Of a stretch of 15,097 bases of DNA, positions 3,773 through 11,543 are shown piece after piece. Origin of the DNA: a virus (taxonomy: Duplodnaviria; Heunggongvirae; Uroviricota; Caudoviricetes). Under the pieces are notes generated by a model. The model did not search any database, was not told the origin of the DNA, and was given only the letters and a program-made list of their open reading frames with translations. Within the stretch, counting starts at the first letter, position 1; every line of letters begins with the position of its first letter. The stretch is from IMG/VR virus record IMGVR_UViG_2671180979_000021; one strand, given 5' to 3'. Position numbers and translations under genes: made by a program.

Positions 3773-4095
3773 ACTTTCAGGCCTCTCTCATGTAACCAGT
3801 GAGTTGCACGCAGCCTTGCGTTTTCCTCACCGGCAAGCAGTGAGCGGATAATCCCGACCGCCTCGCTGTCGTCGTCCTTCACCGCTGTATGAAGCGTGAT
3901 CCCCCGGGCCACACCACGCTTTATCGTGATGACGCCTTTTTTCTCCAGTGCGCGAAGATGCTCCACCGCTGCATTCACCGAACGGTATCCCAGCATGGTT
4001 GCCACCTCCTGATTGGTTGGCGGGAAGCCACGCTCTTTCTGATAAGAAATCAGCATATCCAGCACCTGCTGCTGGCATTGAGTTAACGTCGTCAT
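3769..4095 (-). CDS. LexA N-terminal DNA-binding-domain-like protein (no peptidase domain)
   Basis: 108 aa. LTQCQQQVLDMLISYQKERGFPPTNQEVATMLGYRSVNAAVEHLRALEKKGVI follows the LexA winged-helix pattern. Confidence 0.6.
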   Translation of the reverse strand: MTTLTQCQQQVLDMLISYQKERGFPPTNQEVATMLGYRSVNAAVEHLRALEKKGVITIKRGVARGITLHTAVKDDDSEAVGIIRSLLAGEENARLRATHWLHERGLKV

Positions 4096-4745
4096 GCCGC
4101 CATCTCCCTGACCAGCTTTTCCGCCTGCAGGCGAACCTGCGCCAGAAACGCCTCACCACATGCCTCAAGTTCATCGCGCCCGATGTAGCTGATTGCCGGT
4201 CCCTTCCAGGTCTTGTCGAAAACAGCAATAGCACCAGCGAAGAAAGCGCCTGTCGGCACCTGCTTCTCATCCTTCGGGATAAACCAGGCAGGCAGTTCAA
4301 AACCAATACGCCCGCGAATAAAAGCAATATGATCTGCATCTTCCGGCCACCACACTTCGCTGGTGGCAGCTTTGATCAGGAAAACATAGCGCCCGCCCTT
4401 ATCACGCATGGCACTGGCATGCTTCATGATGTAACGCATGCCGGTGATGTATTGCCCCTCATGCTGACTGGCGCGGCTGTATGGGGGATTTCCAAAGGCA
4501 GCACCTTTAAGCTCCGCAAGACGTTCTGACCAGTCATGCGCCAGCGCGTTGTCTTCCGCCGTGTAATACGCGGCGCATTTGGCGTTATCACCGTCAGTAA
4601 ACAGATCCAGAACAAACGGGCCAAACAGGGTGTTAATTCCCCAGAAAATGTTGTCCGGTGTGCGCCACTGATCGCCCACTTCCTTCAGTTCATGGGCTGG
4701 TTTGTTTCGCAGTTCCACCAGCGCCCGGCAATATTTATTACTCAT
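4092..4745 (-). CDS. Phage Dam-type DNA N6-adenine methyltransferase
   Basis: Contains the NPPY catalytic motif (FGNPPYSRAS) within a Dam-like fold pattern. Preferred start is the ATG at 4743-4745, which overlaps the upstream TAA (TAATG); the track ORF extends to 4778. Confidence 0.8.
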   Translation of the reverse strand: MSNKYCRALVELRNKPAHELKEVGDQWRTPDNIFWGINTLFGPFVLDLFTDGDNAKCAAYYTAEDNALAHDWSERLAELKGAAFGNPPYSRASQHEGQYITGMRYIMKHASAMRDKGGRYVFLIKAATSEVWWPEDADHIAFIRGRIGFELPAWFIPKDEKQVPTGAFFAGAIAVFDKTWKGPAISYIGRDELEACGEAFLAQVRLQAEKLVREMAA

Positions 4746-5239
4746 TAAGCCCCCACGTAATTCCCTGACAGATACCACTCTTCACCTGATGCAGCGCGCT
4801 TGCTGCTTTTCCGTAAGCACCGCTCACGACGTGCCAGAAAATTGTTTCGTTCTGGCTGGGAGTGGCTTTCACGGAATGCCGCCATCCACACGGTTGCAGC
4901 ACGACGAAATAAGCCCCTGGACTCCAGTTCTTCCGCCTGGCGGGCCAGGCACAAAATCACCCGCGGGTCGTTAGTGCCGACATAGAAATTGCGCACAGGT
5001 CTGGTTTCACGAACTGGTTGCCGTTCCGCCTCCGGCGATATCTTTGTCTGGCGCGGGAAATGTCTGCGTGCATCCCCTTCACAACGGTGAGCCACACGCC
5101 CACTCTGACGTAACTTGCTTGCTGACTGCAGAACGCGCTGCCGTGAGTAACCTGTAAAAGCATCCGCAATGTCTCCGGAAGTACACCCCGGATGGGCTTC
5201 AATGAATTTCTGAACGTCATTCAAAAGACTCATGCTCAC
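4745..5239 (-). CDS. Hypothetical regulator with PerC-like C-terminal region (YfdN-like, 164 aa)
   Basis: C-terminal ARQAEELESRGLFRRAATVWMAAF...RRERCL resembles the PerC/ANR-type small activator pattern. Start overlaps the replication gene stop (ATGA). Same position as yfdN between the methyltransferase and replication genes of CPS-53. Confidence 0.55.
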   Translation of the reverse strand: MSMSLLNDVQKFIEAHPGCTSGDIADAFTGYSRQRVLQSASKLRQSGRVAHRCEGDARRHFPRQTKISPEAERQPVRETRPVRNFYVGTNDPRVILCLARQAEELESRGLFRRAATVWMAAFRESHSQPERNNFLARRERCLRKSSKRAASGEEWYLSGNYVGA

Positions 5240-6177
5240 CCCCTGAATCCTGCCGGGATCTGGCTGTAGTCCACGTTGTCGTAACTGGCTTTGAAGTACG
5301 GGTCCTCGCGTTTTTCGGTGTACGTGCTGACGGACGGCGATAAGCGCAGGGAAAGCTCATCCCATTTTTCCCGCAGCTTCGACGGGCTGAGCACGTTACG
5401 GCACCAGAACGGATCGCGACTGACGCGGCTGTACATCTCGCAGATTTGTTTATGAGTATGACCATCCTGCACACACATCAGGCGAATTTCGTTTGCCCAG
5501 GCTGTCCAGTTCGGTTCTTTGGGACGAACCACCTCGCCGTCACATTCGGCAGCCTGCTCGTACAGGGCAATGATTTTTTTCCAGAGCCACTGTGCGCAGG
5601 TCAAATCATCCTGCGTCCCCCACTGGCGCTTTTTAGGGCTGAATACAACCGCATCAGGATGGCGAGTTAAAAAATCCTGTTCATCCGTCTGCGTGTCCGG
5701 TTGCGAAGCGTCCGGACGAGAAGGTTTTTTATCTGACGGATCATGTTTTGATTTTACTGACGGATCCCCGCCAGATTCTGACGGGTGAAAACCCGCTTTT
5801 TTACCAGATTTCGACGCATCAAATTTTGACGGGTCAGATTTTGATGCGTCAGATTTTGACGGGTCAGAATCTGACAGTTGAGAAAATGCCGCTGCCTGAA
5901 GCTTCGCAACGTTAAGCTGATAAACATTCGACGCATTGCGGTTACCCTGGCGACGCGCCTTACGCGTTAACCAGCCTTCTGCTTCCAGCCGTGCGATAGC
6001 CGTTCTGACGGTACTCATCCCCGCGCCAATCTGGCGGGCAATGGTTTCAATTGATGGCCAGCACACACCTTCGTCATTACTGAAATCAGCCAGGCGGGCC
6101 ATAATTGCCACGCTGGATAACTTCATGCCTGACGCAGCGCAACCATCCCATACATAGCCGGTTAATTTAGTGCTCAT
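5236..6177 (-). CDS. Phage replication initiation protein (O-like; N-terminal wHTH, acidic low-complexity linker, C-terminal domain)
   Basis: 313 aa. N-terminal ...SSVAIMARLADFSNDEGVCWPSIETIARQIGAGMSTVRTAIARLEAEGWL is an HTH replication-initiator pattern. The DNA iterons map onto the SDPSKSDASKSDPSKFDASKSG linker. Confidence 0.75.
   Translation of the reverse strand: MSTKLTGYVWDGCAASGMKLSSVAIMARLADFSNDEGVCWPSIETIARQIGAGMSTVRTAIARLEAEGWLTRKARRQGNRNASNVYQLNVAKLQAAAFSQLSDSDPSKSDASKSDPSKFDASKSGKKAGFHPSESGGDPSVKSKHDPSDKKPSRPDASQPDTQTDEQDFLTRHPDAVVFSPKKRQWGTQDDLTCAQWLWKKIIALYEQAAECDGEVVRPKEPNWTAWANEIRLMCVQDGHTHKQICEMYSRVSRDPFWCRNVLSPSKLREKWDELSLRLSPSVSTYTEKREDPYFKASYDNVDYSQIPAGFRG
5731..5880. repeat. 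Iteron-like direct and inverted repeats (core TGACGG(A/G)T) inside the replication gene; putative ori
   Basis: CTGACGGAT at 5733 and 5757, CTGACGGGT at 5778, TTGACGGGT at 5826 and 5855, with interleaved GACGCATC (5813) and GATGCGTC (5843). Analogous to ori-lambda iterons lying inside gene O. Confidence 0.55.
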
Positions 6178-6186
6178 GACCGACCT

Positions 6187-6525
6187 CTATTTCCCTGAAT
6201 TTACGACGAAACTGTTCGAGCGGACTGAAGCATTCATGCTCATAACCTTCGCGGAGGTAGATAACCCGTTGTGTTTCCGGCTCCCAACGAATGACTCTGA
6301 CGGGCACTCCGTAGTGATCTTTGAACCAGCGGTTAACTTGTCGCAAAGGACTGTCTCCTTCTGCCGGTTGAAATCACCCACAGCCCACTCTGCAAAGCTG
6401 TGGGTTACAATTTCCCTGTCACCTGGTACATTCACTGCATAGCAATATTCCACCTTCGCTTTTCCACCCGGAACAGGAAGCGCAATCAGTTGCGAGCGAC
6501 GGTAGTGTGTTGTTAAACTGTTCAT
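6187..6525 (-). CDS. Hypothetical protein, 112 aa (uncertain)
   Basis: ATG at 6523-6525 overlaps the stop of the upstream gene, with GGAG 10 nt upstream. However codon usage is unremarkable, a perfect 9-bp inverted repeat lies inside it, and a competing plus-strand ORF exists (6170..6442). Confidence 0.35.
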
Positions 6526-7413: not shown

Positions 7414-8088
7414 ATGAAAACAATCCATGACATCCGGCGGTCTAACGCCAGAAAACTGAGAGATGGTGTTGGCGGGAATTCTTCCTTTGCCACTATGATT
7501 GATCGCGAGCCAACCCAGACCAGCAGGTTTATGGGAGATGGTGCTACTAAAAATATCGGTGACAGCATGGCACGACACATCGAAAAATGTTTCGACCTAC
7601 CTGTCGGATGGCTCGATCAAGAACACCAGACAACGAACATCACAAAAAAACCTGATGTTTCAATCACTAATAAACAAATCACATTAGTCCCTGTCATATC
7701 ATGGGTACAGGCCGGAGCATGGAAAGAAGTTGGATATTCTGAGGTTGATTTGAGCACAGCAGAAACTTACCCCTGCCCTGTACCCTGTGGCGAAATGACT
7801 TATATCTTGCGGGTGATTGGTGATTCAATGATTGATGAGTACCGCCCTGGAGACATGATTTTTGTTGATCCCGAAGTCCCTGCCTGCCACGGTGACGACG
7901 TTATTGCATTGATGCACGATACAGGCGAAACCACCTTCAAGCGATTGATAGAAGATGGAACACAGCGTTATCTCAAAGCATTAAACCCAAACTGGCCTGA
8001 GCCTTACATTAAGATTAACGGTAATTGCTCTATAATTGGTACAGTGATTTTCTCGGGAAAACCAAGAAGATACACAATAAAGGCCTAA
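7414..8088 (+). CDS. CI-like prophage repressor (N-terminal HTH, C-terminal S24 LexA-type peptidase)
   Basis: 224 aa. C-terminal catalytic Ser (IGDSMIDEY) and Lys (TTFKRL) spaced as in S24 peptidases. Divergent from the Cro-like gene, with operators in the intergenic region. Confidence 0.85.
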   Translation: MKTIHDIRRSNARKLRDGVGGNSSFATMIDREPTQTSRFMGDGATKNIGDSMARHIEKCFDLPVGWLDQEHQTTNITKKPDVSITNKQITLVPVISWVQAGAWKEVGYSEVDLSTAETYPCPVPCGEMTYILRVIGDSMIDEYRPGDMIFVDPEVPACHGDDVIALMHDTGETTFKRLIEDGTQRYLKALNPNWPEPYIKINGNCSIIGTVIFSGKPRRYTIKA

Positions 8089-10137: not shown

Positions 10138-10674
10138 ATGTCATTTATTAAAACTTTTTCCGGGAAGCATTTTTATTATGACAAGATAAATAAAGACGAC
10201 ATCGTGATTAACGATATCGCGGTTTCCCTTTCAAATATCTGTCGCTTTGCAGGACATCTTTCACACTTCTACAGTGTCGCCCAGCATGCGGTGCTTTGCC
10301 GCCAGCTGGTGCCGCAGGAATTTGCTTTTGAAGCGTTAATGCATGATGCAACAGAAGCGTATTGCCAGGACATCCCCGCACCACTGAAACGACTTCTTCC
10401 TGACTATAAACGGATGGAGGAAAAAATAGACGCCGTAATCCGTGAGAAATACGGGTTACCTCCTGTTATGAGCACGCCAGTGAAATATGCCGATCTCATC
10501 ATGCTGGCAACCGAACGCCGCGATCTCGGACTTGATGATGGCTCTTTCTGGCCTGTATTGGAAGGTATCCCGGCAACAGAGATGTTCAAAGTGATTCCAC
10601 TGGCACCGGGCCATGCCTACGGGATGTTTATGGAACGCTTCAACGAGTTATCGGAATTACGCAAATGTGCATAA
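10138..10674 (+). CDS. yfdR: HD-domain 5'-deoxynucleotidase YfdR-like, 178 aa
   Basis: HD motif (ALMHDATEAY) with the earlier His (AQHAV). ATG at 10138 preceded by GGAGA. Length equals YfdR (178 aa). The track ORF begins earlier at 10075. Confidence 0.8.
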   Translation: MSFIKTFSGKHFYYDKINKDDIVINDIAVSLSNICRFAGHLSHFYSVAQHAVLCRQLVPQEFAFEALMHDATEAYCQDIPAPLKRLLPDYKRMEEKIDAVIREKYGLPPVMSTPVKYADLIMLATERRDLGLDDGSFWPVLEGIPATEMFKVIPLAPGHAYGMFMERFNELSELRKCA

Positions 10675-11543
10675 CTCATGTAGTTAGTTTTTCTGGCGGG
10701 AGAACATCTGCATATCTTGTTCACCTGATGGAAGAACAAAGAAAGGCTGGCAATAACGTCTGCTACATCTTTATGGATACCGGTTGCGAACATCCGCTGA
10801 CATACCGCTTTATTCGGGAGGTTGTGAAGTTCTGGGGCATACCGCTAACTGTGTTGCAGGTCGATATAAATCCAGAGCTTGGGCAGCCAAATGGTTATAC
10901 GGAATGGGAACCAAAGGATATTCAGACGCGAATGCCGGTGCTAAAACCGTTTATGGACATGGTTAAAAAGTACGGTACGCCATACATCGGCGGCGCATTC
11001 TGTACTGACAGGCTAAAACTCACCCCTTTCACGAAATATTGAGATGACCATTTTGGGCGAGGGAATTACATCACATGGCTGGGTATTCGTGCAGACGAAC
11101 CCCGCAGGCTGAAACCGAAACCGGGCGTCCGGTATCTCGCCGAACTGTCAGATTTTGATAAGTCGGATGTTATCCGGTGGTGGCGTAAACAGCCGTTCGA
11201 TTTACTTATCCCTGAGCACCTCGGGAACTGTGTTTTCTGCATCAAAAAGTCAACGCAAAAGCTGGGGCTTGCATGTAAGGACGAACCTGGCCTGATGCGG
11301 GTTTTTAATGAACTGGTTACAGGCCAACACGTCAGGGACGGTCATCGCAGAACAGGTAAAGACGTTATGTACCGTGGTCATCTGAGTCTTGAAGGGATTG
11401 CCAGAATGTATGCCGACAGCGACTACTGGAATTTGTATCAGGCGATGGTGCAGGCCGGGCGATTCGATACCGGCTCGTGTTCAGAGTCATGTGAAATCTG
11501 GGGTGATCAACTGGAGTTGAAATTCGAAGAGGTAGTTACATGA
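10665..11543 (+). pseudogene. PAPS reductase-like (PP-loop) gene interrupted by a single in-frame TGA at 11040-11042
   Basis: N-terminal PP-loop motif SFSGGRTS. The same frame stays open from 10665 to 11543 apart from the one TGA (FTKY*DDHFGRGNYITWLGIRADEP...). This corresponds to the split yfdS/yfdT pair position in CPS-53. Confidence 0.55.

Follow-up and report, generated by a model that had tools for sequence, protein, structure and literature searches.

The initiator gene of a lambdoid prophage of the SfII/SfIV type contains an array of short dyad-symmetric repeats, placed in the part of the gene that encodes the linker between the two domains of the protein. Judged from its sequence, this array is very probably the replication origin of the prophage. 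That it acts in cis as a DNA element we regard as nearly certain. The repeats show dyad symmetry, are linked to the N-terminal domain of the initiator and are under purifying selection at the DNA level, and they are accompanied by a segment of low stability that carries GATC sites.

The prophage window and its initiator gene

The window, that is, the whole stretch of DNA analysed (15,097 bp), is an SfII/SfIV-type lambdoid prophage of E. coli or Shigella. Its early-right operon is on the minus strand, in the order cro-like gene, cII/YmfL-like gene, 112-aa ORF, 313-aa initiator, YfdN, Dam, LexA-like, RusA and KilA-N (Table 1). The initiator matched phrog_391 ('replication initiation O-like') over its full length (E 2.8e-135), and at the DNA level the gene is 98-99% identical to genes called 'O' or 'primosomal protein' in phages SfII, SfIV, Kati and others. 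The start of the YfdN-like gene directly downstream overlaps the end of the initiator gene, stop codon included, by 4 nt.

The N-terminal domain showed a Pfam match to HTH_36 (E 4.3e-11, aa 23-70). Its profile matches were to HTH_36, GntR and MarR-type winged helices, and Phage_rep_O was not among them in the Pfam scan; a search of PDB sequences with the initiator returned weak MarR-type matches only. Employing AlphaFold2 with a 29-sequence alignment as input, we obtained a confident winged helix for aa 1-98, with helices and a beta wing across aa 3-98, and a C-terminal domain (aa 164-280) with pLDDT values of 88-96. The segment between them (aa 103-161) was predicted to be disordered, with pLDDT below 50 and zero secondary structure.

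Table 1. Features of the initiator region and neighbouring genes (positions in the window)
Feature	Position	Strand	Basis or remark
cI	7414-8088	plus	
Initiator gene, lambda-O-like, SfII/SfIV type, 313 aa	5236-6177	minus	ORF list
N-terminal winged-helix DNA-binding domain, aa 1-98	5884-6177	minus	presumed origin-recognition module
Site A, dyad CTGTCAGATTCTGAC (gene strand)	5863-5877		first and perfect-core copy; exact YCAGAWTCTGR at 5864-5874
Four degenerate dyad units in 15-bp phase, including the GACGCATC/GATGCGTC pair	5803-5862		Tandem Repeats Finder and logo
A-tract/T-tract spacer between array and site B, AAAAAAGCGGGTTTTCAC (gene strand)	5785-5802		sequence
Site B, 17-bp near-perfect palindrome CCGTCAGAATCTGGCGG	5768-5784		best conserved site
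Two direct repeats GATCCGTCAG(T/A)(A/T)AAA, candidate unwinding element with Dam sites	5725-5766		GATC at 5763-5766 and 5739-5742
Stability minimum of the gene, 40 bp with 68% A+T	5718-5758		nearest-neighbour dG
Predicted disordered interdomain linker, aa 103-161	5695-5871	minus	AlphaFold2
C-terminal domain, aa 164-280	5338-5688	minus	homologous to lambda O C-domain
C-terminal tail SQIPAGFRG, last 9 initiator codons	5239-5265	minus	BLASTP vs MG1655 DnaT aa 171-179
YfdN-family gene, 164 aa, MarR-like winged helix and PerC/ANR-like C-terminus	4745-5239	minus	
Dam-type N6-adenine methyltransferase gene (phage)	4092-4778	minus	Pfam PF05869, E 1.2e-45; two genes downstream of initiator

Anatomy of the repeat array

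The initial annotation of this DNA had described at least five copies of the nine-mer YTGACGGRT within the initiator ORF. This was borne out. Exactly five copies are present in the window, all on the plus strand (5733, 5757, 5778, 5826 and 5856) and all within 5733-5864, inside the initiator ORF; the expectation from shuffled sequences was 0.47, and none of 200 shuffles reached five. Tandem Repeats Finder likewise identified a 15-bp period (4.3 copies) and a 30-bp period (2.1 copies) at 5805-5868. The proposed coincidence of the array with a low-complexity linker also held, as the repeats encode aa 101-152 (SDSDPSKSDASKSDPSKFDASKS...DPSVKSKHDPSDKK), inside the predicted disordered segment.

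The repeats are therefore real, but the nine-mer taken as a direct repeat is not their unit: the true unit is a dyad phased at 15 bp. Three nine-mer copies, those at the lower coordinates, are half of palindrome B and the two GATC repeats, a distinct and better conserved core, and the remaining two are junctions of adjacent 15-bp units. The nine-mer therefore lumps three different elements. The conserved core of the dyad is YCAGAWTCTGR, for which four of the five matches in the window are found at 5771-5874 (0.95 expected). There is no second cluster in the 15-kb window, the sole other match being located at 11148 with one mismatch.

Two perfect-core and four degenerate copies of YCAGAWTCTGR make up the dyads of the array. 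Site A is the first of them, and many homologues likewise begin their array with a sequence of the CTGTCAGAWTCTGAC type. The 15-bp units have the gene-strand consensus TCT GAC NCN TCA AAA. In a logo of 314 units from 65 genes, only nucleotides 6-9 were variable and the rest were conserved; the Lys codon was AAA in 229 of 230 cases and the Ser of the fourth codon was TCA in 267 of 314. Among homologues the number of units ranges from 3 to 10. The inverted GACGCATC/GATGCGTC pair noted earlier does exist, with arms at 5813-5830 and 5833-5850 that are 89% complementary, but its members are the variable middle codons of 15-bp units rather than separate elements.

In the spacer between the 15-bp units and site B, GGTTTT is conserved at 90% or more across the family. 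Within site B, the 14-mer CCGTCAGAATCTGG is identical in about 35 homologues from other genomes, and the codons TCA, GAA and TCT are invariant or nearly so; divergent family members show a perfect 17-bp palindrome, CCTCCAGAATCTGGAGG, at this site. The core sequence is retained down to 52% N-domain identity and is kept in 73 of 75 family genes. Covariation of the dyad at the outer positions of site B (3/15 and 4/14) was also considered; these positions were complementary in only 95 of 150 sites and were not used as evidence.

A low-stability segment with conserved GATC sites follows site B

In the 60 nt after site B, all 68 homologues compared have one to three GATC sites, and 54 of them have two. 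The density of GATC in this segment is tenfold that in the rest of the gene (68 genes), and the nucleotides of the GATC repeats are conserved at 90% or more. The same region contains the stability minimum of the gene (5718-5758), where dG is -48.3 compared to a gene mean of -58.5 (sd 3.4), about 3 sd below. As a positive control, the stability scan recovered the known AT-rich region of lambda directly after iteron 4. The minimum is modest, with 68% A+T as compared with 78% in lambda and a rank in the top 8% of 40-bp windows in the 15-kb window, and in phiP27 and mEp460 the stability minimum falls outside the equivalent place.

The prophage thus combines two conserved GATC sites in the least stable stretch with a phage Dam gene two genes downstream of the initiator. 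The phage Dam is a possible functional partner of the GATC pair, and the combination suggests that the putative origin may be controlled by methylation or SeqA. A crude motif search of 72 related loci found an adenine methyltransferase encoded within two ORFs of the initiator at only 38, so a phage Dam does not universally accompany the GATC sites.

The array is inherited together with the N-terminal domain

The C-terminal domain of the initiator matches lambda O aa 78-270 (BLASTP 4e-25, 30% identity, 216 aligned positions), and the linker aligns with the segment of lambda O in which the four annotated iterons of ori-lambda are located. Both lines of evidence support, at the level of sequence, the earlier proposal of a lambda-type arrangement with the origin within the initiator gene.

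Natural chimeras showed which part of the initiator the array belongs to. Citrobacter phage phiNP has the N-terminal domain and the array in common with the window (5699-6176, 83% nt) and a different C-terminal domain. Conversely, mEp460_4F5 has the C-terminal half in common (window 5236-5735, 96% nt) and a different N-terminal domain; in place of the array it carries four to six palindromic repeats of 23-24 bp, then its own AT-rich stretch. In that locus (L003, 1991-2167) the repeats read CATYGGGYCAYTTTGACCCRATG and are followed by an AT-rich stretch of TTCTCTGTA repeats. Probably this repeat set serves as the origin for yet another, separate type of specificity. In mEp460, Min27 and lambda, the repeats proper to each are likewise found directly after the N-terminal domain proper to each; lambda's four iterons, recovered by the repeat finder, served as a control. 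The comparison of iterons with N-terminal variation proposed in the initial annotation thus showed that array and N-terminal domain are co-inherited, as seen in the phiNP and mEp460_4F5 chimeras, and that the C-terminal domain is exchanged independently of both. Because of these swaps, the array is assigned to the N-domain module, as expected from the lambdoid ori-specificity model. Repeats were present in all intact homologues examined.

Linkage of the array to the N-terminal domain, together with the DNA-level selection described below, would fit any function in which the initiator binds these sites. The true origin could then be located elsewhere, while the sites act in autoregulation, as a transcriptional roadblock within the pR operon or, through titration or handcuffing, in the control of copy number; the repeats of iteron plasmids have control functions in addition to their role in initiation. 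We consider such an exclusively regulatory role decidedly unlikely for this array. The 15-kb window contains no second cluster of the motif, the least stable, GATC-marked segment comes after the array, at the position of lambda's unwinding element, and the same layout is seen in other O types.

Recognition of the sites by a protein other than the initiator (the MarR/PerC-like YfdN, a host factor, or a packaging or partition protein) is very improbable. A wHTH-containing protein is indeed encoded directly downstream (4745-5239), but phages phiNP, Kp1LV, KpF5 and Flotzy keep the array with no yfdN-like gene after the initiator, and the array always changes with the N-terminal domain of the initiator.

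Selection acts on the DNA of the array

We fetched 80 loci from different species with the same N-domain family (52-100% aa identity) and compared synonymous sites in 64 alignable distinct genes. At 13 codons for conserved residues around P-S-E-S-G-G-D-P-S-V...D-P-S, the mean fraction of the major codon was 0.93, and nine of the 13 were at 95% or more. At 63 conserved codons of the N-terminal domain in the same 64 genes, the fraction was 0.55, and none reached 95%. The difference between the core block and the N-domain codons was highly significant (Mann-Whitney p = 2.6e-7). The conserved nucleotide block, GGTTTTnACCCGnCAGAATCTGGnGGGGATCCGTCAGTAAATTCAAAAc.aGATCCATCAG, corresponds to about 5731-5793 in the window. 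Non-synonymous positions inside and neighbouring the core block do vary, so the block is not the product of a recent sweep.

The reading frame of the core provided further evidence. In the phiP27 subfamily, the last core is in another frame in 54 of 62 distinct genes and encodes T-R/L-Q-N-L instead of P-S-E-S-G. Similarly, the window and a Citrobacter homologue (L082) share an identical TTTTCACCCGTCAGAATCTG and translate it in different frames. Since 149 of the 150 main-family cores keep to a single frame, it is one subfamily that supplies the evidence for independence of frame. Taken together, the frozen synonymous sites and the frame change of the phiP27 type establish that selection acts on the DNA and that the S-D-P-S-K linker is its translation. 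The view that the DNA repeats constrain the protein sequence, as first proposed, is strongly supported by these two results.

A constraint of this kind might in principle come from the mRNA or from an overlapping feature, such as stable folding of the O mRNA, transcription of the antisense strand or an overlapping frame. The predicted minus-strand fold of 5715-5880 has an energy of -50.8 kcal/mol (z = -4.96 relative to shuffles) and pairs site A with site B and GACGCATCAAA with TTTGATGCGTC; at 5782-5795 the antisense strand has a small hairpin and, after it, a T-run. A low energy is to be expected as a by-product here, because palindromic repeats pair with themselves. Moreover, the core is invariant in sequence and not covarying, and the GATC/AT-rich block is equally constrained yet unpaired in the fold. 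No Rfam family was found in the window, and no promoter-like site in 5200-6300. An overlapping ORF was rejected as the source of the synonymous constraint, since no other frame runs through the block uninterrupted in more than 34 of the 68 genes. On these grounds, constraint through RNA or an overlapping feature is slightly less probable still than recognition by another protein.

Least probable of all is an ordinary coding tandem repeat, in which slippage would have made a low-complexity S/D/P/K linker under peptide-level selection at most, with no cis function of the DNA. In its favour are the shared reading frame of the window's five TGACGG copies and of 149 of 150 main-family cores, the variable number of units (3 to 10, with a difference of one 15-bp unit among E. 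coli strains) and the predicted disorder of the segment. This explanation is nevertheless largely refuted already by the codon and frame data, since synonymous sites are nearly invariant in the block and saturated in the N-terminal domain of the same genes, the DNA core survives a frame change that turns the peptide PSESGG into TRQNLTP, the units have a dyad symmetry that a peptide repeat does not need, and the preferred codons TCA, GTA and AAT are unlike those of E. coli translational optimisation.

A possible route from initiator binding to helicase loading

Returning to the array as an origin, we infer the following route of initiator binding, unwinding, origin firing and helicase loading. 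Dimers of the N-terminal winged-helix domain would bind the dyad YCAGAWTCTGR, with CCGCCAGAATCTGGCGG as the candidate target of the dimer. When the strong sites A and B and the four weaker, 15-bp-phased copies between them are occupied, an O-some-like nucleoprotein complex would form and destabilise the adjacent least stable segment (5718-5766) with its two conserved GATC-containing repeats. The lambda-O-like C-terminal domain and the DnaT-like tail would then recruit the host helicase-loading machinery. In such a complex the linker need only be flexible, so the S-D-x-S-K repeats and PSESGGDPS would largely be the translation of DNA sites. No DnaA box was found near the array; the sole match in the window is at 10666.

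The initiator and the E. coli primosomal protein DnaT end alike, in SQIPAGFRG and SQIPPGFRG, with 8 of 9 residues identical. Of 73 family members, 47 end in a G-F-R/K-x tail, and the C-terminal domains that carry it include several unrelated ones. DnaT did not come up in the PDB sequence search, for which the tail is too short. The window contains no gene for P, DnaB or DnaC, and no loader is encoded next to the initiator, the Pfam matches of the downstream ORFs being MarR/PerC, Dam, LexA-like, RusA and KilA-N only; the SfII annotation lists no helicase loader either. As no helicase-loader gene was found, the loading step proposed above is a conjecture. From its similarity to DnaT, the SQIPAGFRG tail may be a mimic for host helicase loading. 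A simple rule connecting the tail with a missing loader holds at several loci and was rejected as a general one, because it fails for two loci (L089 and L091) that have both and for the 339-aa type, which has neither.

A more specific model would combine these features in a P-less 'solo-initiator' origin. Its unwinding element would be marked by the GATC pair and its firing gated by adenine methylation and SeqA, with the Dam supplied by the phage; the initiator would recruit host DnaB-DnaC by mimicking the C-terminal tail of DnaT (SQIPxGFRG), bypassing a phage-encoded loader. We put this combination forward tentatively and consider it doubtful as a whole. If it is true, the initiator would polymerise on the alternating half-sites of the 15-bp zipper in another way than in the lambda O-some. 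A solo initiator with a DnaT-like tail also offers a testable lead on host helicase loading in P-less lambdoid phages. In the literature searched, we found no paper that describes an SfII/SfIV-type origin or explains what the DnaT tail does.

Comparison with known origins

In lambdoid phages, iterons and an AT-rich tract in the middle of gene O form the textbook origin; ori-lambda of lambdoid and Stx phages has four to six iterons plus the AT-rich region and, like the array described here, lies inside the initiator gene between the regions for the N- and C-terminal domains (PMC7466680). The array further resembles ori-lambda in its multiple sites with internal dyad symmetry and, less clearly, in the least stable stretch on their downstream side. 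In both systems, sites and N-terminal domain are exchanged as one module, and the C-terminal domains are homologous (4e-25).

The strict features of lambda O were not found, namely a Phage_rep_O N-terminal domain, the length and spacing of the iterons and the P partner. The N-terminal domain here is an HTH_36-type winged helix instead of a member of the Phage_rep_O family. The sites are dyads of 11-17 bp at 15 bp, accompanied by an isolated strong palindrome, whereas lambda has 19-bp iterons at 20-24 bp (periods of 20, 24 and 23 bp). The AT-rich part is less extreme than that of lambda and carries the two conserved GATC repeats, and the initiator ends in a DnaT-like tail with no P gene beside it. 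Given the 15-bp phase (1.4 helical turns) and the overlap of 17-bp dyads as compared with the spacing in lambda, the complex formed on the array may not resemble the O-some.

P22 gene 18, phi80, 82 and HK97/HK022 also have origins inside their initiator genes, and there the initiator is paired with P, DnaC-like or DnaB-like partners. The likeness lies in the possession of separate in-gene repeats for each type of N-terminal domain, as seen here for mEp460_4F5, mEp460 and Min27; the difference is that the present module consists of the initiator alone.

In plasmid iteron origins, and in oriC and P1 oriR, which are Dam-dependent, clustered initiator sites adjoin an unwinding element with GATC, and P1 encodes its own Dam. 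The array is similar to these origins in that its clustered candidate initiator sites are located beside a candidate unwinding element bearing GATC. It is different in that no DnaA box is found near it and in that the whole element is in coding DNA; relative to a plasmid-type iteron origin, it has dyads in 15-bp phase instead of direct repeats of about 17-22 bp spaced by nearly two helical turns (about 22 bp), which are usually accompanied by DnaA boxes. Judging from these comparisons, the array very probably follows the "ori-in-O" design of lambda, from which the module departs in its DNA-binding domain, in the layout of its sites and in the lack of a P gene. It is an expected type, of which the literature searched gave no description.

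Distribution and remnants of the module

Using window 5650-5950 as a 301-bp query, we searched 5426 complete E. coli genomes; 2059 gave a match, and in 1945 very similar DNA covered 80% or more of the query. In E. coli, the RefSeq label of the gene is only 'helix-turn-helix domain-containing protein', and no origin is annotated. A defined origin would provide a target for studying or blocking the induction of SfII/SfIV-type serotype-converting Shigella phages and related E. coli prophages, and it would explain why the linker is conserved at the nucleotide level in this initiator family. The array is also a clean, naturally occurring case in which selection on the DNA overrides the reading frame, and it warns against codon-optimising or recoding the initiator gene.

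Variants and remnants of the module were seen in several genomes. In NZ_CP023371, a 316-bp stretch matched the 301-bp query within a 318-aa gene, consistent with one extra 15-bp unit. The CPS-53/KpLE1 prophage of E. coli K-12 (L094, 2587-3294) keeps the array and the C-terminal half in an N-terminally truncated pseudogene beside yfdN and yfdM. At two other E. coli loci (L067 and L090), only aa 1-79 of the N-terminal domain are kept, fused to an unrelated sequence that we take to be terminase-like, resembling e14 ymfN. Enterobacterial-type copies of the gene were also found in assemblies labelled Vagococcus, Chryseobacterium and Martelella (L022, L044 and L049), which are probably contaminated or mislabelled.
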